NCBI GenBank assembly: GCA_965367675.1
Contig: CBDUJZ010000009.1
Coordinates: forward strand, 2,488 to 66,487
DNA: 64,000 bases
Direction of reading: 5' to 3'
From: an uncultured Myxococcales bacterium
Lineage (GTDB): Bacteria > Myxococcota_A > Bradymonadia > REDH01
Position 1 is the first letter of the stretch; each line of letters starts with the position of its first letter. A program made the position numbers and the translations under genes. The notes under the pieces were generated by a model. The model saw nothing but the letters and a program-made list of their open reading frames with translations. It did not search any database and was not told the origin of the DNA. Positions 6,465 to 54,387 of this stretch are shown in pieces.

Positions 6465-7205
6465 ATGAAGACCCTCCCCCTGTTCCGCCACTCGCTTCTC
6501 ATCGCCTTGGCGAGCTCCAGCCTGACCCTCGCCGCCTGTGGTGACGACGAGTCCCCCACGCCGGACGCTGGAGAGACCGACACCAGCGCGGACACCAGCG
6601 AGGGCGACGCGGCGGAGACGGATACGGTCGAAGCGGACGTCGCTGATGATGCGACGGTGACCGACACGGTCGAGGCCGACGTCGCCGCGGACACCGTTGA
6701 AACCGATGTGGTCGAGGCTGACGTTGCCGCGGACACCACCGAGACCGACACCGTCGAGGGCGATGTGGCCGAGGACACGACGGAGACCGATACCGTCGAG
6801 GCCGACATCACGGAAGACACGGTCGAGGACACGGTCGAGGACACCACGGAAGACACCGTCGAGTCGCGTCTCGAGGTCAACGGCTGCACCTACGAGACCG
6901 CCAGCGACATGACCGGCCAATCCACGGTCGACATCTCCGGCATTCAGGCGTGGACGATTCCGCACCAGGTCTGCATCGTCGTATCGGCGGGCACCGAAGT
7001 TTCCTGGTCCGGTAGCTTTGGCGGTCACCCGCTGGTGGGTGGCGAGGTGTTCTCCGTCGACGACGCGAGCCCCATCACCATCGCCGCGAATGCCGCTGGC
7101 TCCGAGGCGGCCACCGTGTCCGTCATGCTCGCGAACGCCGGTGACTTTGCATACTTCTGCAACCGTCACTTCGAGGCCATGCAAGGCGTCATCTACGTCG
7201 ACTAG
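6465..7205 (+). CDS. Cupredoxin (type-1 blue copper, plastocyanin/pseudoazurin-like) lipoprotein with acidic TDTVEADVA repeat linker
   Basis: Start at MKTLPLFRHSLLIALASSSLTLAAC (lipobox). About 100 aa of roughly 11-aa acidic repeats, then a C-terminal domain with His (TIPHQVC) and the YFCNRHFEAMQG copper-site signature (Cys-x2-His-x3-Met). Confidence 0.8.
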   Translation: MKTLPLFRHSLLIALASSSLTLAACGDDESPTPDAGETDTSADTSEGDAAETDTVEADVADDATVTDTVEADVAADTVETDVVEADVAADTTETDTVEGDVAEDTTETDTVEADITEDTVEDTVEDTTEDTVESRLEVNGCTYETASDMTGQSTVDISGIQAWTIPHQVCIVVSAGTEVSWSGSFGGHPLVGGEVFSVDDASPITIAANAAGSEAATVSVMLANAGDFAYFCNRHFEAMQGVIYVD

Positions 7206-19661: not shown

Positions 19662-21467
19662 CTACTCGCCTTCGGCGCAAACGGTGTCTTGCTCAACAAT
19701 GTGGAACTCCACGCGGCGGTTCTGGGCTCGGCCGCTTCGGCTGTCGTTGTCGGCGATCGGGCGTGTCTCGCCAAATCCTACCGCGTCGACGGATGTACGC
19801 ACGCCCTGGTTCTCCAGGTAGGTGCGGACCGACTCGGCGCGTTCTTGCGACAGCGTCAGGTTGCTGTCGTCGGAGCCGCGGTCATCGGTATGTCCTTCGA
19901 CGCGCACGCGACGAATTTGATTCGCCGAGCGCAGAACTGTCGCCACTTGGTTGAGGAGCTCGAACGAGCGGGCCTCGATTTCAGCGGAGCTGGTCTCGAA
20001 GTACACGTTCTCGGCGATCTCGATGCGGTCGCACTGCAAGGACACGAGTCCCTCGCCTTCTTCGGGGCATCCATCGTCGTCTTCGAAGCCGTCGTAGTCT
20101 TCGGGCAGCTCGGGGCAGGCGTCGTCGGCGTCGAGCATTCCGTCACGGTCGTTGTCCGACTCGGGGCATCCGTCGGCATCTTCGAATCCGTCGAAGTCTT
20201 CGGGGCTGTCCGGGCAGTCGTCGTCAATGTCCAAGACGCCGTCGCCGTCGTTGTCGAGGTCCGGGCATCCGTCCATGTCCTCGAATCCGTCGATGTCCTC
20301 GGCGATGTCGGGGCAGTCGTCGTCCTCGTCGTCGATGCGGTCGCCATCGTTGTCGATGTCGGGGCATCCGTCGGCGTCTTCGAAGCCGTCGTTGTCCTCG
20401 GCCTGCAGCGGGCACGTGTCGTTGAAGTCGAGGATTCCGTCGCCGTCGTTGTCCGGGTCGGGACAGCCGTCGGTGTCTTCGAAGTCGTCGTGGTCCTCGG
20501 CGTCGGCCGGGCACAGGTCGTTGGCGTTGAGCACGCCGTCTTCGTCGCAGTCGTCACATCCGACCGACGAGACGCCGATCTCCAGCATGAAGCGCCAGTC
20601 GGGCGCGCCGAAGCCGCGGAGCAGGCCCATGCCGAAGCCGCCACCCACGTGGACACGGTCGGCGATGTAGCGGCCGCCGATGCGGGCTTCGATGGGGAGC
20701 TCTTCGCGGTCGATGGAGTCCGCAAGCGCAGAGACCGCGCCTTCGAACTCGAGGAGCAGGTGACCGGCCTTCTCCGCGCCCAGCGCGATGTCGATACCGG
20801 CGCCGTACGTGATGACGTCGTCGACCTGCAGGTTCGCGATCTCGCCGCTGCCCGTGCGCACCATGTAGCCCGCGTTGAACATCAGGCGGAACTGCTCCGC
20901 GAACGCCACGTCGAACAGCAGGCGAGGGTGCACGCGGAGGTCTTCGCCCTGCAGCGTGTCCACGTTGCCCAACGGCAGGAACACGCCGACCTCGAGGGCC
21001 AACGAGACGCCGCCGGGGGACTCGCTCGTGTCGCCGTTGAACAACTGCAGCTTGGGGATGATGCGCGGGTCCGCGATGCCGACGCCGGCGTCGTGTCCGT
21101 TGAAGTCCAAGTTGGGTACGTTGTCGCCGGTCTGGCGCAGGATCATCGGGACGTCGAAGCCGATCTCAAGACGGTCCGCGATACCCACCGAGAATAGTAC
21201 GTTGGTGACGAGCTGGTCGTGCACGAGCGCGTTCTTCTGCTCGTCGCCGTCGTAGATGCCGAGCAGGTCGTCCGCGTAGTGGAGCATGAGACCGAGTTCC
21301 CACTGACGGGCGGCTTGGATCTGCGCGGAGCCAACACCGAAACCGTTGAGCCGCTGGCTCGCGTTCGGGTGCAGGTTCTGGACGTCGAAGCCGTCGTACG
21401 CGGCGGCCGGCGAGGCAGAAAGGAGCAGCGCGGCGATGCTGCCGAGGCCAAGTGCGCGAAGTTTCAT
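19662..21467 (-). CDS. OmpA-family outer-membrane protein with thrombospondin type-3 (DxDxDGxxDxxD) calcium-binding repeats
   Basis: Signal peptide (MKLRALGLGSIAALLLSASPAAA), beta-barrel-like N-terminal region, about 10 TSP3 Asp-rich repeats and a C-terminal OmpA_C domain (VEGHTDDRGSDDSNLTLSQERAESV...NRRVEF). Confidence 0.85.
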   Translation of the reverse strand: MKLRALGLGSIAALLLSASPAAAYDGFDVQNLHPNASQRLNGFGVGSAQIQAARQWELGLMLHYADDLLGIYDGDEQKNALVHDQLVTNVLFSVGIADRLEIGFDVPMILRQTGDNVPNLDFNGHDAGVGIADPRIIPKLQLFNGDTSESPGGVSLALEVGVFLPLGNVDTLQGEDLRVHPRLLFDVAFAEQFRLMFNAGYMVRTGSGEIANLQVDDVITYGAGIDIALGAEKAGHLLLEFEGAVSALADSIDREELPIEARIGGRYIADRVHVGGGFGMGLLRGFGAPDWRFMLEIGVSSVGCDDCDEDGVLNANDLCPADAEDHDDFEDTDGCPDPDNDGDGILDFNDTCPLQAEDNDGFEDADGCPDIDNDGDRIDDEDDDCPDIAEDIDGFEDMDGCPDLDNDGDGVLDIDDDCPDSPEDFDGFEDADGCPESDNDRDGMLDADDACPELPEDYDGFEDDDGCPEEGEGLVSLQCDRIEIAENVYFETSSAEIEARSFELLNQVATVLRSANQIRRVRVEGHTDDRGSDDSNLTLSQERAESVRTYLENQGVRTSVDAVGFGETRPIADNDSRSGRAQNRRVEFHIVEQDTVCAEGE

Positions 21468-40244: not shown

Positions 40245-41108
40245 TCAGTCCGCGTCCAGGTGGCGGCGGACGGCGGCAATAAACGCGTCGGGGCATTCGC
40301 GGTGAATGAAGTGGCCGGCGGGCAGGGCGACGTGTGCGTCCGCGGGAAGGGTGCGCGCGGCGTGCGCCATCACCGATTGGCCCATGCAGCCGTCTTCGAG
40401 GCCCGAGATGAGCATCAGCGGGGCTTGGATTGGGCCGAGGGCCGCGCGCCGCGTGGCGTGGTCGCGGGCGATGGCGCGGGGCAGGGCGCGGTAGTATCCG
40501 AGGGCGGCGCGGAGTGACCCGGGGGCTCGGTACGCGCGCTTCACCGGCTCCAGGTCGTCGGCGGTGAACGACCAGCTGGGGGACCACCGGCGCCACAGCT
40601 GCTCGACGGGTTGAAAGTCGTTGCGGGCGAGCGCGGCCTCGGCGATCCGAGGGGCCTGAAACGCGGCCATGTAGGCGCTGCGCCAAAGCTGTTTGGGGTC
40701 TCGCGCGCCGAGCACACTCGCGGGCGGCGGGACGGCGGCGAGCACGACGCGTCGAATGCGGTCGGGGAACAGGGCTGCGGCGGTGTAGGCGGCTACGGCG
40801 CCCCAGTCGTGCCCGACGACGTCGACGGATTCAGCCTCGAGTTGGTCCGCGAACGCGACCACGTCTTCGGCGAGCGCGCGGACGTCGAAACGGCCGTTCG
40901 CGGGCACCGATGATGGGGCGATGCCGCGCATGAACGGCGCCGCCACGTAGCGTCCGTCGTTGGCGAGCGCCGCGCGCAGGTCGTCGAACGTGTGGGCCGT
41001 GTCCGGGAACCCGTGGAGCAGCAGCGTGGGCCGTCCGGTGGGCGGTCCGCTGACGCGCGCGGCGCAGCGCCAGTCGGGCAGTTCCCACGTGAGGGTGTCG
41101 TTGGGCAT
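40245..41108 (-). CDS. Alpha/beta-fold hydrolase
   Basis: HGFPD oxyanion region and the nucleophile elbow GHDWG. Start at an internal ATG (MPNDTLTWELP...). Confidence 0.8.
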   Translation of the reverse strand: MPNDTLTWELPDWRCAARVSGPPTGRPTLLLHGFPDTAHTFDDLRAALANDGRYVAAPFMRGIAPSSVPANGRFDVRALAEDVVAFADQLEAESVDVVGHDWGAVAAYTAAALFPDRIRRVVLAAVPPPASVLGARDPKQLWRSAYMAAFQAPRIAEAALARNDFQPVEQLWRRWSPSWSFTADDLEPVKRAYRAPGSLRAALGYYRALPRAIARDHATRRAALGPIQAPLMLISGLEDGCMGQSVMAHAARTLPADAHVALPAGHFIHRECPDAFIAAVRRHLDAD

Positions 41109-42275: not shown

Positions 42276-45191
42276 ATGGAGTCACCGCGCCACAATCGAA
42301 CAGGCACAGGGAGCCGTGTGCGACGGGCTTCGGTCGCCGGCGCTGTGGCCCGGTGTACGCTGGTGATCGCGCTCCTATTGGCGTCCGCGACGGCGTCGGC
42401 CGAGGGCATCTACGCGCAGCGTTGGACGGACTGGGCGACGACGCATTTTCGGGTGCATGCGCACGCGTCTGTGGCGCCGCTGGGCGCAGACGTGCGCGAC
42501 ATGATGGAGCAGGCGTACACGGTGGTGACCGAGCGCTTTGGCTGGGCGCCGCGCGGGCGCGTGCACGTGGTGATCGAGGACCAAACCGACAGCGCGAACG
42601 GCGTCGCGAGCACCGCGCCGTGGAACGACATCCGGCTGTACGCGGTGCCGCCCACGCACGACAGCACGCTGGGCTACTACGACAACTGGATGTGGAACCT
42701 CGTGGTCCACGAGTACACGCACATTGTGCATCTGGACCGGGTGGAGGGCATCCCGAAGCTGGTGAACACGCTGCTCGAGGCCGAGCTGTCGCCGGGCCAT
42801 ACGATCCCGCGCTGGTTCATCGAGGGCCTCGCCACGTGGTTCGAGTCTGACGTGACCGGCACCGGGCGGTTGAACAGCGCATATATGGATGCGTACTGGC
42901 GCGCGGCGGCGCTCGACGGCACGTATCCGACCATGGGCGACCTGTCTGGCAGCAGCATCGACTGGCCGTTCGGCACGGGCTGGTACCTGTATGGCGGGCA
43001 CTTCATCGACACGCTGGTGGACCGCGTGGGCTTCGACGCGGTGGCGCGTTATCTGGATGTCTATAGCCGGCAGGTGATCCCGTATCGGGTGGATTCGCTG
43101 GCGAAGAAGGTCATGGGCGTGAGCCTGATCGCGCTGTGGCCGGAGATGCACGCCGAGCAGGCGGGGAGGGCGCACGCGGACGCGTTGGTGTCGCGGATTC
43201 TGGGCGGCGGTGCGTACGAGCGGGTCACGCGCGGCGGCAACCAATCGCGGTTTGTGACCGTGGACCCGGACGGCGCGTTGGCGTGGATTGAAGACGACGC
43301 GACCGAGTCGGCGGCGATCGTTACGTCGGCGTTCCGCGTGGACCTCGACGCCAGCGGCGAGTTCGACTTTTTGGCGCCTGATCGTGTGGTCATCGACCAG
43401 CCGCATCAGGTGTCGCGGTACTTCTCGTTTCGCGATCTGTACGAACTCGACCTGCGCACCGGGAGCTCGCGCGCGATCACTTGGGGGGCGCGGGCGAGGG
43501 AGCCGCGGGTGGGGCCTGACAACCGTCGCGTGGCGTTCTCTAGCGTGTCGGTCGGGCGCGCCAATATCGCCGTGCTCGACTTGGACACCGGCGAAGTGAC
43601 GCAGGTTTTTGAGGCGGAAGCGTGGGGGCAGGCGACGTCGCCGGATTGGGTGGACGCGGATCACATCGTGTTCTCGTACCTGCGTCCGGGACACGGCCGA
43701 GACTTGTACGTGCTCGACCTGCGCGAGGGCGCCGCGGTGCCCCTGCGGCAGCTCACCCACGATGGCGCTGTGGCGGTCGACCCGTTTGTGGTGGACGGCG
43801 CCGTGTTGTTCAGCTCGGACCGCGACGGCATTCACAACTTGTACGCCATTCCGATCGATGGCGGCGACACACGGCGGCTGACGCGGGTCGATACGGGCGC
43901 GTTTTCACCGGTGCTTGCGGGCGACACGCTGGCGTTCGGCGTGGTCGGAGGCGCGGGCTTTGATATCGGTCAGTTGCGCATGGCCTCGGCGCCGCTCGAC
44001 GCTCCACTGGCCGGCCCCGTGACGCACCCTATGCGCCCGGTTCCGCCGCCGGCCATCGACCTCGCGGCCGTGCGGGCAACGCCGGAGCGTCGCCGCGCTT
44101 CGATTCGCGCGATGCGGCGGCCGGACTGGACGCCGCAGCTCGGCTTGAGCGGGTTTTCGTCTGCGGTAGGCCTGCAACTGGCCAGCTCGGACGCTCCCGG
44201 GGTGAACGCTTTTGACGCGACGCTGCAGTGGTCGTTCGAGCACATGCAGCCGGTGGGATACGTGGGATTCACCACCCGCCGTCTGCCCATCCCGATTGGG
44301 CTCAGCGTGTCGCGCGGCTTGGTGGTGCGCGACCGCAGCCTGGTGCGGGCCAGCCGCTACGTCCCGTATCTGGAGCAGCGTATCGACGCGTCGATCGGCA
44401 CCACCATCATCTTCCCGCGCCTGGGTTCCACCCATGGCCTGTCGTTCTCGTACTCCGCCAATTGGCATGGGATCCTGGACGAGCCGGAGGTCGCGCCGTC
44501 GCCGGTGGACATCACGCCGCAGTCGCCGGAGTACCGCCGGTTCAACGCGCTGCGCACGAGCTGGGGCTGGTCGCGGGTTCGTCGGTACGGCCGCTCGTTC
44601 ACCCGCGAAGAGGGAACCTCTGTCGACGTCTCGTTTCTGCTGCGTTCGGCGCTGATCGGCGCCCAGGTAGAATCGGGTGAGCTGACCGCTGGCGTGGCGC
44701 ACTACGCGGAGCTGCCGTGGGGCCATGTGCTGGCGATGCGCGCATCCGGCGGCATCGCCGACGCCGCTACCATCGGGCCGCGGACCTTCACGCTCGGCGG
44801 GCTCGGCACCCACGATGTGTTTCTGGCGCTATACGAGTCTGCGCCGGAAGGGACGGCCCACATCCGCGGATATCGGCCCGGCATTCGGAGCGGAAATCGG
44901 TTCTATCGCGGGCAGCTGGAGTACCGCATGCCGGTGGCGAATCTGGGCGCTGGCTCGGGCACGCTGCCGGTGTATCTGGAGCGCCTGCACGCGGCGGTCT
45001 TCTTGGACACCGGCGACGCCACATCCGACCGCGTGCGCTTTCGCGAGGCGTTGGTCGGGATGGGCGCCGAGCTGCGGTTGTCGACGGTGATGGGCTACTC
45101 GCAGGCGGCTGATTTTCGGCTGGGCTTCGCGCGCGGCGTCGGCGCGGACGGCATCTGGGACGCGTATCTTTTGTACGGGTTCGAGTACTGA
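42276..45191 (+). CDS. Large secreted fusion protein: Peptidase_MA_2 (HExxH...E) domain + TolB-like beta-propeller + C-terminal outer-membrane beta-barrel (Omp85/surface-antigen-like)
   Basis: Signal peptide (LVIALLLASATASAEG). HEYTHIVH...PRWFIEGLATWFES zincin motif, repeated propeller blades (PDGALAWIED, GPDNRRVAFSSV, SPDWVDADHIVFSY, HDGAVAVDPFV, SDRDGIHNLYAI) and a C-terminal amphipathic beta-strand region ending ...LLYGFEY with an aromatic terminus. Confidence 0.8.
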   Translation: MESPRHNRTGTGSRVRRASVAGAVARCTLVIALLLASATASAEGIYAQRWTDWATTHFRVHAHASVAPLGADVRDMMEQAYTVVTERFGWAPRGRVHVVIEDQTDSANGVASTAPWNDIRLYAVPPTHDSTLGYYDNWMWNLVVHEYTHIVHLDRVEGIPKLVNTLLEAELSPGHTIPRWFIEGLATWFESDVTGTGRLNSAYMDAYWRAAALDGTYPTMGDLSGSSIDWPFGTGWYLYGGHFIDTLVDRVGFDAVARYLDVYSRQVIPYRVDSLAKKVMGVSLIALWPEMHAEQAGRAHADALVSRILGGGAYERVTRGGNQSRFVTVDPDGALAWIEDDATESAAIVTSAFRVDLDASGEFDFLAPDRVVIDQPHQVSRYFSFRDLYELDLRTGSSRAITWGARAREPRVGPDNRRVAFSSVSVGRANIAVLDLDTGEVTQVFEAEAWGQATSPDWVDADHIVFSYLRPGHGRDLYVLDLREGAAVPLRQLTHDGAVAVDPFVVDGAVLFSSDRDGIHNLYAIPIDGGDTRRLTRVDTGAFSPVLAGDTLAFGVVGGAGFDIGQLRMASAPLDAPLAGPVTHPMRPVPPPAIDLAAVRATPERRRASIRAMRRPDWTPQLGLSGFSSAVGLQLASSDAPGVNAFDATLQWSFEHMQPVGYVGFTTRRLPIPIGLSVSRGLVVRDRSLVRASRYVPYLEQRIDASIGTTIIFPRLGSTHGLSFSYSANWHGILDEPEVAPSPVDITPQSPEYRRFNALRTSWGWSRVRRYGRSFTREEGTSVDVSFLLRSALIGAQVESGELTAGVAHYAELPWGHVLAMRASGGIADAATIGPRTFTLGGLGTHDVFLALYESAPEGTAHIRGYRPGIRSGNRFYRGQLEYRMPVANLGAGSGTLPVYLERLHAAVFLDTGDATSDRVRFREALVGMGAELRLSTVMGYSQAADFRLGFARGVGADGIWDAYLLYGFEY

Positions 45192-45193
45192 CG

Positions 45194-45289
45194 CCGCCGC
45201 CTTTGCGTGCTTCCGCGGCGCCGCCTTTGCGTGCTTCCGCGGCGCCGCCCTTGCGTGCTTCCGCGTCGCCGCCCTTGCGTGCTTCCGCG
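45194..45289. repeat. Four tandem 24-bp direct repeats (CGCCGCCTTTGCGTGCTTCCGCGG x2, then CGCCGCCCTTGCGTGCTTCCGCGT x2)
   Basis: Read directly from the sequence. Starts 3 nt after the stop of the 42276..45191 gene, about 120 bp upstream of the DUF2330 gene. Confidence 0.85.
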
Positions 45290-45412
45290 TCGCCGAGCGC
45301 AACGGGCGCGTAGGTGCTTTCTCTGATCTTCGAGTCCGGCTAGCGTGCGTGTCTACGCAGAAACAGGTTACGTCGATTGGGTCACACGGGTGGGCCAAAC
45401 CAGGGGAGCTTC

Positions 45413-47017
45413 ATGGGTCTATCGATTGTCCGCTCGGCGCTTGCCGTTGGCGCCATTTTCGCCGTTAGCACGCTCGCGTCGCCTGCAGCGGAGGCCTGCG
45501 GTGGCCTGTTCTGCTCTATCCCGCCCACCGAGGTGCCCACGGCGCCGGAGCCGGTGGACCAGACGGCGGAGCGCATCATCTTTGAGGTCTTCGAGGACAC
45601 GGTCACGGCGCACGTACAGGTGTCGTACTTTGGTCCGGCGAGCGACTTCGCGTGGATCGTGCCGGTGCCCGAGGGGACCACAGTCGCGGAGTCGAGCGCG
45701 GGCTTGTTCGACACCGTCGCCGCGGGTAGCGCCATGAACGTGGTGCTGCCCGCGGCGGAGCAGTGCCCGGCGCCTGTCGGTTCGGGCGGTGGTCGCGGGC
45801 CGGCTTTCGGGTGCACCGCAGATGCCGCGTCGGCCACCGCAGAGGGCGGCGACGGGGTCCGGAGTCCAGACGGAATGTCACCGGTGACGGTCTACGCATC
45901 CGGCGCGACCGAGAATTACGAGTACAGCATCATCGGCGCGGCGCGGGCGAGCGACCTCGTCGACTGGCTGCGCGTGAATCGGTTCAATGTGTCGGACAAT
46001 ATGACGCCTGTGATGCAGCCTTATAGCGACGAAGGCATGCAGTACCTGGCGGTCAAGCTGCGCGAGGGCCGTGAGGCGACCAACATTGTACCGCTCGCGA
46101 TGACCTATCCTGGCGTGGAGCCCATGATTCCGATTCGGCTTACGGCGGTGGCCGCGCAGCCGCTGATGGGGATCCAAGTTTGGATCTTTGGTGACGCCCC
46201 GTATGTGCCGACCAACTATGCCATGACCGAGCCCGAAGACACGGAGATCGTGTCCGATGAGCTCGGCAACACGAGCTACTACGAGTGGGTCGCCCGTGAG
46301 GTGGCGGAGTCGGCGGGCCGCCTCTGGATCGCCGAGTACATGGGGGAGAATCAGACGGGGACGTTGCGCGGGCACGACGTGGTCTCACGTTATTATACGC
46401 GCATGAATCCGGGCAGCATGACGGTCGACCCGGTGTTCGCGGTGGCCAACAACGCGCCGCCTGTGAACAGCACCCTGGACCTGTCCTGGCAGCCCACCCC
46501 CTTTACGTGCGGCGGCGTCGACATGTCGCGCGTCCCGTCGGCGTGCGGCTTCAACTACTGCGGCCTGGGCGCGGTGTGCTCGGTCGACAACGGGCGCGTC
46601 GGGTGCCTGTGTCGCGAGGGCGAAGTGGCGCAGTCGATCACGGGGCCGGACGGCACGCGCAAGGTCACGTGCGGGCCGGCGGTAAACCCGTTCGGTGTGA
46701 CGGCCGAGGCGGGCGGCGTGGGCACCGAGTTTGACCCGTGCGCCGATGTGGTCTGCGGATTGGGCGAATGTGTCGTGCGCGGCGGCTTCCCGACGTGCGA
46801 TTGCAATACCGGCGCGATCGCCTGCTTGGAGCCCGGAGGGGTGGTGTGCGTCGCGGCGACGGCGGGCGCGGAGACGTTCGGGCCGGGCGCTGGTAACGAG
46901 GCGTCGCCGACGGTTGTGGCGAGCATCGAGCAGCCGGTCCGTACATGGTACGCGGCGCTGGTTGGCCCCATGCTGTTTGCTGGCATTCTGCTCGGGCTCC
47001 GACGCCGCGCCGTTTAA
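45413..47017 (+). CDS. DUF2330 family secreted protein with EGF-like Cys-rich C-terminal repeats and a C-terminal transmembrane anchor
   Basis: Signal peptide followed by the ACGGLFC motif typical of DUF2330. C-terminal CxxGxC repeats (CGLGAVCSVDNGRVGCLC, CGLGECVVRGGFPTCDC). Terminal hydrophobic helix plus RRRAV. Confidence 0.8.
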   Translation: MGLSIVRSALAVGAIFAVSTLASPAAEACGGLFCSIPPTEVPTAPEPVDQTAERIIFEVFEDTVTAHVQVSYFGPASDFAWIVPVPEGTTVAESSAGLFDTVAAGSAMNVVLPAAEQCPAPVGSGGGRGPAFGCTADAASATAEGGDGVRSPDGMSPVTVYASGATENYEYSIIGAARASDLVDWLRVNRFNVSDNMTPVMQPYSDEGMQYLAVKLREGREATNIVPLAMTYPGVEPMIPIRLTAVAAQPLMGIQVWIFGDAPYVPTNYAMTEPEDTEIVSDELGNTSYYEWVAREVAESAGRLWIAEYMGENQTGTLRGHDVVSRYYTRMNPGSMTVDPVFAVANNAPPVNSTLDLSWQPTPFTCGGVDMSRVPSACGFNYCGLGAVCSVDNGRVGCLCREGEVAQSITGPDGTRKVTCGPAVNPFGVTAEAGGVGTEFDPCADVVCGLGECVVRGGFPTCDCNTGAIACLEPGGVVCVAATAGAETFGPGAGNEASPTVVASIEQPVRTWYAALVGPMLFAGILLGLRRRAV

Positions 47018-47053
47018 CTGGTAGCGTTTGGCGCGCGACGCGTGATCTCGGCT

Positions 47054-47082
47054 TGACAGGCTGCGCGGGCTCCGCTTAGAAG
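47054..47082 (+). promoter_or_regulatory. Candidate sigma70-type promoter for rpsO (TTGACA-17-TTAGAA)
   Basis: -35 hexamer TTGACA, 17-bp spacer and a weak -10, about 70 bp upstream of the rpsO ATG. Confidence 0.25.
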
Positions 47083-47150
47083 CGCCGTCCCGTACGGGCG
47101 CTCACCATGGAAGGGCGCCGTACACCCCTCTTCACCTTTGCGAGACCCCC

Positions 47151-47432
47151 ATGGCACTCGATACCCAAGCAAAGGCTGAGCTCATCGCGCAAATGCAAAA
47201 GCGCTTTGGCCTGGCCGACAACGATACTGGCTCTTCCGAGGTTCAGATCGCGATTCTCACGAACCGCATCACGTACCTCACCGAGCACTTCCGTACCCAC
47301 AAGCACGACCACCACTCGCGCCGCGGCTTGCTTAAGCTCGTCGGTCAGCGTCGTCGTCTGCTCGACTACGTGAAGAAGAACGACTTGGCGCGCTACCGCG
47401 AGGTTCTCGCGGAGCTCGGACTGCGCAAGTAG
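47151..47432 (+). CDS. rpsO: 30S ribosomal protein S15
   Basis: [78 protein letters not shown], a highly conserved S15 sequence. Confidence 0.95.
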
Positions 47433-51958: not shown

Positions 51959-53695
51959 TTGAAGAGGCTCCCGATGAACCGCTTTCGTTTCGTTGCATGC
52001 TCCGTGCTCGCCATGTCCTTCGCGGTTGGAGGTTGTACTCCGACCGAAGACTGGGCCGACCCCGAGTACATCCAATACCGCATGGAGATGAGCGACCCGC
52101 GGGCGTTCAACGAGTTCTCGCACCTGACCGATGAGCAAAAGGCGACCCTGGTCCCCACGCTTGTCGAGGTGTTCAACAGCGGCCTGAACCAAGAAGAAGT
52201 GTTGCGCGCACTGGTGGCCTCGGCCGATCCGCGCGGCAAAGACGTCTTCCTCAGCGCGCTCAGCCGCAGCGACGACCGCCTGGCTGGTCTGGCGGCACGT
52301 GGGCTCGCGGCGATTCAAGACACCGGCTCGGCGACCGCCGTGGCTGAGCGTCTCGCCACCGTTACACAACACGACGCGTACGCGGCCTTCTTGGACGCGC
52401 TCAACGCCATCCCAACGCCCCAGGCGGCCGACGTGGTCGCGAACGTGATGATGCGCCCCGCCGAGCGCGTGGGCGGAATCAACACCATCCGCCGTGGCTG
52501 TGCCATGCTCGGCCAGGTTGAGTCGCCGTCCGAAGAGGTCATCGACGCGATGGTGTTCGGCACGGTCAACCTGATCCCGCAGCCGTTCGAGGACGCGCTC
52601 AACGAGTGTGAGCTCGCGCTGCTGGCGCACGGCGACGCGGTGGTCCCCAAGCTCGCGGCGTTGTTCCGCGGCGAGAACCAGACCGCCAACACGCGCCTCA
52701 CGTCGATGCAGTACCAGATGGTCGTCGGCAAGCTGCGCGCTGGCGCGGTGCTGGCCCACATCGGCTCGCCGCTCGCGGTCAACGTGTTGATCAGCTGGTT
52801 CAACACCCAGCAGGAGATCCCCGTCACCGAGTTGGAGCGCATGACGCCGGAGCAGGCGGCCGCGTGGTACGACTTCCACGGTCAGCTGTTCACGGCGGCC
52901 ACGCAGGGCCTCGCCTACGCGGGAACGGATGATGCCACGGCGACGTTGCGCGGCCTCGAGTCGACCGGCGAAGGTCAGCTGCTCGAGCACTTCCGCATTT
53001 GGTTCCAGCTGTCGGCTGGCGCCGAGTTCGGCCTCCGCACCGCAGTGCACGAGGGCATGATGAAGGCGGGCGTCGCCGAGGACCGCGAGCTGCTTTGGAC
53101 GCGCGCCGAGTCGGGCGCGTTGGCGACGGCGCGCACGGCGTACTTCACCAACGAGTTCCGCAAGAACGCGCTGCACTACGTGGGGCGCACGGCGCTGCCG
53201 ACCGAGTTGGAGCGCTACCAGGCCGCCGCGGCCGCGCAGACCAACCCGATCGAGTTCCTCATGCACATGAGCTACTTTGTTCTGGCGCAGACCTGCGGCG
53301 ACGACGTGGCGTGCTACGCCGCCAAGATCAACGACCCGGACTCCCTGCTCACCGAGCCCGCGCTCGTGGCCGCGCTCGAAGGCGTCGAAGACGAGCAAGC
53401 CCGCGGACAGATTCGCACTGGCATGTCGCAGAACGCGCGCACCGGCGCCGTCTGGCAGCTGGGCGTGCGTCTGGGTGACCAGCCGGCGGCAGCTGTTGCG
53501 CTGCTGGACGCGCTGTCGAGCCCGAGCATGCAGGTCCGGTTCGAGGCCGTTGAGGCGCTGCACTTTGTCGACGCGCTGCCGGCCGATGCCGCCACGCGCC
53601 TCGAGACGTTCCTTACCGAAGAGGCGGGCAGCACGGCCCAAGGCGCGCGCGAGCTGCGCCACGCCGTCCGCGTGCTCCGCGCGATGCGTCTGTGA
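51959..53695 (+). CDS. HEAT/PBS-lyase-repeat lipoprotein (hypothetical)
   Basis: Signal peptide and lipobox (SFAVGGC). Repeated alpha-helical HEAT-like segments; no catalytic motif. Confidence 0.65.
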   Translation: MKRLPMNRFRFVACSVLAMSFAVGGCTPTEDWADPEYIQYRMEMSDPRAFNEFSHLTDEQKATLVPTLVEVFNSGLNQEEVLRALVASADPRGKDVFLSALSRSDDRLAGLAARGLAAIQDTGSATAVAERLATVTQHDAYAAFLDALNAIPTPQAADVVANVMMRPAERVGGINTIRRGCAMLGQVESPSEEVIDAMVFGTVNLIPQPFEDALNECELALLAHGDAVVPKLAALFRGENQTANTRLTSMQYQMVVGKLRAGAVLAHIGSPLAVNVLISWFNTQQEIPVTELERMTPEQAAAWYDFHGQLFTAATQGLAYAGTDDATATLRGLESTGEGQLLEHFRIWFQLSAGAEFGLRTAVHEGMMKAGVAEDRELLWTRAESGALATARTAYFTNEFRKNALHYVGRTALPTELERYQAAAAAQTNPIEFLMHMSYFVLAQTCGDDVACYAAKINDPDSLLTEPALVAALEGVEDEQARGQIRTGMSQNARTGAVWQLGVRLGDQPAAAVALLDALSSPSMQVRFEAVEALHFVDALPADAATRLETFLTEEAGSTAQGARELRHAVRVLRAMRL

Positions 53696-54387
53696 GCGTA
53701 CGCAGCGTCGAAGTGCGTGAGCCGCTCCCGCGGCTCCAAGCGCGCGTCGAACAGATGGTGCTCGACGCTGGGTTCATCCCGTGCGCCGCAGACGCCGATA
53801 TCATCCTGCTGTGCGCCGACTCGCCCGTCGAAGGGTGGGACGCCACCGGCGGCATCGGTACTTCGGTGGTCGTAGCCTCGGCTATTCGGCCGACCGCGCT
53901 GTCGCAGATCGACGCGGTGACCACCTTGGCGCGTCCGTTCGACCAAGCGTCGTTGCAGCGGGCGCTCCAGCTCGCCGCGGAGACCCTCGCCGTCGAGAAG
54001 CCGGCCGTGGTGGACGACCTCGAGGTCGAGGCCGACCTGGATGCAGACATCGAGGCCGACCTGGATGCAGACATCGAGGCCGACCTGGATGCTGACGTCG
54101 AGGTGGATGACATCCTCGACGACCTCGACGCCGCCGAACTGGGGGCCGAGTTGCCCGCGCCAGCGGAGCTAACGCCTGCGGACATCCGCGTGGCGCACGA
54201 CTCCCGTCCGGTGTCCAAAGCGACCGTGCGCGTGCCGCCCTCCGCCGAGACCGCGCTGCGGTTGGAGTGCTTGGTCGCGGCGGCCACCGAGATCGCCGAG
54301 TCCGTCGACGTGCTCGCCGCATTGAGCGACGAGGACGCGCGGATCGAAGCCGTGCTCACCATGCTGCGCAGCCACCTGGGCGAGTAG
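53692..54387 (+). CDS. Hypothetical acidic protein with three EADLDADI repeats
   Basis: ATGA overlap with the upstream gene. GC3-rich codon usage. Contains tandem 24-bp coding repeats. Confidence 0.55.
   Translation: MSVRSVEVREPLPRLQARVEQMVLDAGFIPCAADADIILLCADSPVEGWDATGGIGTSVVVASAIRPTALSQIDAVTTLARPFDQASLQRALQLAAETLAVEKPAVVDDLEVEADLDADIEADLDADIEADLDADVEVDDILDDLDAAELGAELPAPAELTPADIRVAHDSRPVSKATVRVPPSAETALRLECLVAAATEIAESVDVLAALSDEDARIEAVLTMLRSHLGE
54028..54099 (+). repeat. Three in-frame tandem 24-bp repeats (GAGGCCGACCTGGATGCAGACATC) encoding EADLDADI
   Basis: Read directly from the sequence, inside CDS 53692..54387. Confidence 0.75.

Follow-up and report, generated by a model that had tools for sequence, protein, structure and literature searches.

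A lineage-specific 24-bp tandem array, probably a young minisatellite, upstream of a DUF2330 gene in an uncultured Myxococcota lineage

The window considered here is a stretch of 64 kb (64,000 nucleotides) of genomic DNA from an uncultured Myxococcota bacterium. The original prediction had drawn attention to a set of short tandem repeats in one of its intergenic regions, and this is indeed where they lie, between the stop codon (45191) of an Omp85/PD40-type gene and the start codon (45413) of a DUF2330 gene. The main features of the locus are collected in Table 1. No regulator gene is found near the array, and a literature search returned no mention of DUF2330. For the product of the upstream gene, a Pfam search with the window's own 957-aa copy gave no match at E ≤ 0.01, the domains listed in Table 1 being those of its homologues. 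Its C-terminus (...LYGFEY*) and the position of its stop codon are kept in relatives, and the array is therefore not a decayed C-terminal extension of this protein. At the other end, near the N-terminus, the same protein carries an HExxH motif (VVHEYTHIVH). In homologues, this motif precedes the Tricorn_N/PD40 propeller and the Omp85 barrel, which would make up an unusual architecture combining a peptidase-like part, a propeller, and a barrel.

Table 1. Features around the tandem array, with their positions in the 64-kb window.
Feature	Position	Strand	Remarks
Omp85/PD40-type gene, 957 aa	42318-45191	+	Signal peptide; homologues carry Tricorn_N, PD40, and a C-terminal Omp85 domain (PF01103)
Antisense R/K/A-rich ORF, 189 aa	44829-45398	-	Shadow ORF, not a gene
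Putative lineage-specific inserted segment, ~1.83 kb	45192-47050	+	Array, 117-nt promoter/5' region, DUF2330 coding sequence, and at most ~35 nt more
Units 1 and 2, type A	45195-45242	+	CGCCGCCTTTGCGTGCTTCCGCGG
Units 3 and 4, type B	45243-45290	+	CGCCGCCCTTGCGTGCTTCCGCGT
Weak candidate DUF2330 promoter	45318-45346	+	TTTCTC-N17-TAGCGT; inferred from a weak alignment of orthologues
DUF2330 gene, 534 aa	45413-47017	+	Shine-Dalgarno sequence GGGGAG at 45403-45408
rpsO (S15)	47151-47432		Followed by pnp (PNPase), both after the DUF2330 gene

Self-comparison at period 24 delimits a head-to-tail array of 4.3 copies of a 24-bp unit at 45192-45295 on the + strand. TRF reports it as one array at 45195-45295, with a period of 24, 4.2 copies, 97% matches, and a score of 174, which is the top-scoring near-perfect array of the window once coding repeats are set aside. 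A degenerate pattern search placed the full units at 45195-45218, 45219-45242, 45243-45266, and 45267-45290, and array matches to the unit pattern were obtained in none of 100 dinucleotide shuffles. The four head-to-tail units of the original prediction are thus borne out by TRF, by the pattern search, and by the second assembly described below. Its coordinates need a slight correction, since the first unit starts at 45195, one base later than the 45194 originally given. The layout of 45189-45300 reads as the TGA stop codon, CGC, the four contiguous units, and CGCCG, which is a partial fifth unit. Judged from its A-free run and from the period-24 similarity, the array has its first base at 45192, right after the TGA at 45189-45191.

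The units are of two types, arranged in the order AABB. The copies are identical within the A pair and within the B pair, and the two types differ at unit positions 8 and 24 (8%), which makes two substitutions where a single one had been described. The units are rich in G+C (71%, with a local GC content of 0.67-0.72), and 45 C are counted against 32 G across 101 nt of the array. They contain no A on the + strand. The resulting A-free run at 45192-45295 (104 nt) is the longest in the window, the runner-up reaching 56 nt; such a run is unusual, yet it largely follows from the repetition of one 24-mer. Direct inspection of the sequence also reveals the short palindromes CCGCGG and GGCGCC at the A-type unit junctions, which are destroyed in the B-type units.

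Because the unit lacks A on the + strand, no stop codon is possible in any of its six frames. The original remark that the only ORF covering the repeats is an antisense one is accordingly true, but trivially so. This antisense ORF shares 363 nt with the Omp85-type gene, its first codon position pairing with the sense third position. Its GC content at the three codon positions is 0.76/0.57/0.70, as against 0.67/0.51/0.86 in real genes. It has no Pfam match, and no gene is called at this place in the second assembly. The ORF was rejected as a gene on these grounds.

Only two assemblies of this species are present in the collections, the window and L001 (ENA ERZ25043461 NODE_199), an independent metagenome contig. 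L001 aligns to positions 35395-57017 of the window (21.6 kb) with 99.74% identity, 39 SNPs, and one 18-bp indel. Its array likewise has four units, ordered AABB, plus a T>G SNP in unit 1 at window position 45211, which is the sole difference between the two assemblies across 321 nt around the array. The comparison of copy number between assemblies that had been proposed as a check therefore gives four units in both, for two strains that are only 0.26% apart. The presence of the same four-copy array in L001 also disposes of the assembly artefact that the original prediction had named as a danger. The closest database entry to the DUF2330 protein of the window (P0001) lies on L001 as well, and differs at 1 of 534 residues. 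The single indel between the two assemblies is found at 40744-40766, in the abhydrolase gene region, downstream of small TRF arrays at 40450-40526.

The unit appears to be confined to this locus. Searched with up to three mismatches allowed, the 64-kb window contains the full unit nowhere else. A 16-nt core gave six matches in the window for 3.7 expected; the two outside the array have three mismatches each, and are at chance level. With a 22-nt core, one isolated match was obtained in 185,579 species genomes, within an actinomycete coding region, and two isolated matches in JGI metagenomes; none of these genome and metagenome matches is tandem, and no match was found in viral contigs. A short-word blastn search of the unit against the masked window, looking for an origin in the flanking sequence, returned only chance matches of at most 16 nt in GC-rich sequence. 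Dispersal over many unrelated loci, as in REP, BIME, or MIRU families, is thus seen neither in the window nor in the collections. This sets aside the generic REP-like element that had been the other danger named, as only isolated chance matches occur in the collections and no further copy in 64 kb.

The array does not look structured at the RNA level. The + strand RNA of 45170-45420 folds worse than 200 of 200 shuffles (z = +2.7), and the - strand folds no better than shuffles (z = +1.4). The imperfect palindromes that form the stem-loops of REP/BIME elements are not seen when either strand is folded. An Rfam search of 44800-45800 with an E-value threshold gave only noise (E > 0.5), and a search of the whole window at the gathering score gave no match. 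A scan of 44900-45700 found no intrinsic terminator, for 1.2 expected in shuffles, and the array itself has no GC-rich hairpin followed by a U-run. The suggestion that such repeats could act as transcription attenuators or terminators does not agree with this absence of a hairpin with U-run, with the poor folding of the + strand, or with the lack of an Rfam match.

Promoter signals are equally faint. A sigma-70 consensus scan over 44900-45700 found no site, and a search by eye for a sigma-54 -24/-12 element in 45296-45412 and in the unit found only unsuitable spacing. The candidate promoter of Table 1 aligns weakly with a CGnTATnnT -10-like box upstream of DUF2330 orthologues. The candidate -35 and -10 boxes would then lie about 22 and 45 bp, respectively, past the end of the array; its distance to the DUF2330 ATG is 118 bp.

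Several known classes of bacterial repeats resemble the array in part. MIRU (mycobacterial interspersed repetitive units) are 40-100 bp long and dispersed at dozens of loci, and contain small ORFs overlapping the stop and start codons on either side. The array shares with them a high-GC genome, a position in the spacer of two co-oriented genes, and a start at the upstream stop codon. It differs from them by its 24-bp unit, by the lack of other copies in 64 kb, with only isolated chance matches in the collections, and by the lack of an ORF linking both genes. Contingency repeats, as in Neisseria and Haemophilus, have units of 1-9 nt, are found within an ORF or in the -35/-10 spacer, and vary at high frequency. 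The array likewise consists of tandem repeats and precedes a gene whose product is secreted or surface-associated, but it ends 118 bp before the ATG, farther upstream than any plausible core promoter. Its 24-bp unit is far above the size typical of contingency repeats, and both available strains have the same copy number, so that the contingency locus originally considered finds no support. The iterons of plasmid and phage origins are likewise non-coding direct repeats, several in number and about 20 bp long. Here, in contrast, the units are contiguous and 71% G+C, with no rep gene, AT-rich unwinding element, or DnaA boxes, and the neighbours are the Omp85/PD40-type gene, DUF2330, rpsO, and pnp rather than an initiator gene. 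The iteron-like or regulator-binding array that had been proposed is hence not favoured: there is no replication context, no motif copy in 64 kb beyond chance, and no conservation of the upstream regions of DUF2330 orthologues. Lastly, the array is not a CRISPR array, since its unit starts are spaced by exactly 24 with no unique spacers in between.

Comparison with relatives gives insights into the origin of the spacer. Three relatives were compared, L011, L012, and L014, whose Omp85-type proteins show 59, 48, and 47% identity, respectively. In all three, the Omp85-type gene is directly followed by rpsO and pnp, with Omp85-rpsO spacers of 156, 136, and 118 nt that contain neither a DUF2330 gene nor a tandem array. 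The upstream order is common to the three as well, with genes for a beta-lactamase, an abhydrolase, a peptidase C15, and MazG before the Omp85-type gene; a metallophosphatase gene is found in L011 and L012 and is absent in L014, and an HMA gene is found in L011 only. These spacers align to the 3' end of the Omp85-type gene up to the TGA and to the rpsO leader from 47053 onward, with nothing in the alignment matching 45192-45412. The left junction is therefore exact, as the homology ends at the TGA and the array begins on the next base. The right junction falls between 47018 and the conserved rpsO -35 box at 47053.

DUF2330 orthologues that are 56-58% identical to the window protein occur at another conserved locus in L005/L006, L007/L008, and L015/L016. 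The order is there T2SSE/HEAT, a divergent Pyr_redox_2 gene, and DUF2330, with PNP_UDP_1 directly after DUF2330 in L007/L008 and L015/L016, and farther downstream in L005/L006. Two of these three Pyr_redox_2-adjacent loci share their samples of origin with L012 and L014. The two closest orthologues (L003 and L004, 64 and 63% identity) have yet other neighbours, and the DUF2330 gene appears prone to rearrangement. No comparable array is found upstream of the five closest orthologues.

With three relatives in which rpsO directly follows the Omp85-type gene, and three in which DUF2330 sits at another conserved locus, the parsimonious explanation is that the lineage of the window gained some 1.83 kb of DNA between the Omp85-type stop codon and the rpsO promoter, including a DUF2330 gene that was relocated or duplicated. 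The array would thereby mark the exact left junction of a recent relocation of DUF2330 in an uncultured Myxococcota lineage, from a Pyr_redox_2-adjacent locus to the Omp85-rpsO spacer. The neighbours of the donor locus (Pyr_redox_2, T2SSE/HEAT, PNP_UDP_1, and a cytochrome) were sought in the window as signs of an empty donor site, with no match. A weak direct repeat with 17 of 24 positions identical is present at the two edges of the segment, at 45181-45204 (TCGAGTACTGACGCCGCCGCCTTT) and 46992-47015 (TCGGGCTCCGACGCCGCGCCGTTT), where the Omp85-type and DUF2330 genes have their 3' ends. It does not stand out from 15 other families found by chance in the same stretch of 2.1 kb, and was given no weight as evidence.

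The array is unique within the 64 kb, unstructured, absent from the relatives examined, and placed exactly at this junction. It is best regarded as a young, lineage-specific minisatellite without a selected function of its own, with a probability of about 0.6; its neutrality and its growth by slippage are what we infer. Bacterial minisatellites or VNTRs have been defined operationally by a motif of at least 20 bp, at least two repeats, and at least 90% identity (PMC2884548). The array also falls within the wider limits of a unit of about 10-100 bp, at least two copies, and at least 90% identity. It resembles the minisatellites used in MLVA typing in being a head-to-tail, intergenic, single-locus array of 4.3 copies of a 24-bp unit, 97% identical, with signs of several single-unit steps in its AABB order. 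In contrast, copy-number polymorphism is the hallmark of VNTRs, and four units are seen here in both strains, which are 99.74% identical to each other. The evidence on copy number and on further copies covers 64 kb of genome and these two near-identical strains.

The arrangement of the units gives some clues to the history of the array. A single duplication of an AB block would give ABAB, so the AABB order points to several single-unit steps or to homogenisation. The divergence between A and B (8%) is much larger than that between the strains (0.26%), and AABB is found in both, so that the divergence of the two types and the duplications precede the strain split. The age of the array is thus bracketed, after the split from the L011 lineage and before that of the two strains. 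In the original prediction, the two-plus-two structure was taken as a sign of recent duplication. The recent character holds, the pairs being identical and the array absent in every relative examined, whereas one duplication of a two-unit block does not fit the observed order.

A possible scenario would start with the insertion of the DUF2330 segment of about 1.83 kb, the array forming the extreme left end of a new, unconstrained spacer. Growth may then have proceeded by several single-unit steps of slipped-strand mispairing or unequal exchange. The A and B types would first have diverged by two substitutions; A would have become AA and B become BB by duplication, or by block homogenisation; the two sampled strains would then have split, with a later SNP in copy 1 of one of them. 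The position of this SNP inside the array fits weak constraint, as one observation. The array would act only as spacer DNA, adding about 100 bp between the upstream stop codon and the DUF2330 promoter region, and occasional gain or loss of 24-bp units would be expected. Single-locus intergenic minisatellites are common in bacterial genomes, and an array with no sign of selection matters little alone; it could serve as a strain-typing marker if its copy number proves variable. Some features do speak against a neutral reading. The array abuts a stop codon upstream of DUF2330, where activator sites, a terminator, or an insulator would be expected, it forms an unusual A-free run, the longest of the window, and its copy number is stable in two strains.

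In a cis-regulatory explanation, the four direct repeats would bind a transcription factor, as an activating or operator array for the DUF2330 promoter. Several identical direct repeats suit a multimeric DNA binder, the copy number is stable in two strains, and the array ends 118 bp before the ATG and about 22 bp upstream of the weak promoter candidate (-35/-10), for which an aligned -10-like box exists in orthologues. This explanation is nevertheless unlikely. Nothing of the array is conserved upstream of any DUF2330 orthologue, the motif is found elsewhere in the 64 kb only at chance level, and no regulator gene is nearby. A period of 24 bp corresponds to a non-integral number of helical turns, and the loss of the short palindromes in the B units argues against a dyad-symmetric binding site. 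Moreover, the only inter-strain SNP of this stretch sits within a unit.

A role in transcription insulation appears rather improbable as well. The array would in this case be a Rho-loading, rut-like tract, ending the transcripts of the Omp85-type gene before DUF2330 and rpsO. Its start on the first base past the stop codon and the lack of an intrinsic terminator in the intergenic region would agree with such a role, as would the poor folding of the + strand RNA. The tract is A-free with more C than G, its C/G skew ranks among the highest 2.5% of 80-nt windows on the + strand, and on direct inspection YC dimers recur about every 12 nt. On the other side, about 31% of the tract is G, which is much for a rut site, and a skew of this size, in either direction, is found in 17% of windows. 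Relatives do without such a tract in the same Omp85-rpsO spacer.

A bolder variant links function and origin, the array being a regulatory or insulating module that evolved de novo upon the arrival of the DUF2330 gene in the Omp85-rpsO spacer. We consider it quite improbable. If true, the four amplified units would recruit a regulator to the relocated promoter, or load Rho and thereby shield DUF2330, rpsO, and pnp from read-through. Were the array to recruit a regulator or to halt transcription, it would exemplify the birth of a cis-element by tandem amplification at a rearrangement junction.

An assembly artefact, or a copy number lowered by collapse during short-read assembly, is very improbable. 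By default, metaSPAdes goes up to k = 55. The purely A-type periodic stretch is exactly 55 nt long (45195-45249), so that extra A units would be collapsible in a k = 55 graph. However, the B-type run is only 53 nt, below this limit, and the independent assembly L001 has the same four units, with its unit 1 SNP making all k-mers unique there.

Finally, the repeats could code for protein, either in the antisense ORF, with RKHAKAAP octapeptide repeats of a histone-H1/AlgP-like kind, or in a 39-aa + strand peptide. Basic Ala/Lys/Pro repeat proteins do occur in bacteria and the 189-aa antisense frame spans the array, but this reading is hardly credible and already largely refuted, given that the A-free unit explains the six open frames, that the antisense ORF sits in the classic shadow frame of a conserved gene with atypical codon-position GC, no Pfam match, and no gene call in L001, and that the + strand frame has no Shine-Dalgarno sequence.

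Beyond the right junction, the rpsO (S15) leader is conserved in four genomes (window 47053-47165 on the + strand, L011 7925-8050, L012 7895-8020, and L014 7838-7963). It includes a promoter, TTGACA-N18-TAGAAG, and a hairpin in which three pairs show compensatory changes. In its loop and 3' arm, this hairpin contains CCCCAUGGAAGGGC, which nearly reproduces the actual start region, CCCCAUGGC, whose ATG is at 47151. No Rfam family matches the leader, which is a candidate S15 autoregulatory leader of this Myxococcota lineage that would act as a start-site mimic.

Other tandem repeats are also present in the window. A second one with a 24-bp period, at 54026-54103 (3.2 copies, 96%), is coding and gives acidic EADLDADI octapeptides within an ORF at 53692-54387 (+); its copy number is the same in L001. 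Two degenerate arrays appear in the TRF table, at 20062-20502 (period 99/198, about 440 bp) and at 6606-6821 (period 42, 5.1 copies). Both contain many GTC/GAC codons and probably code for Asp-rich repeats.
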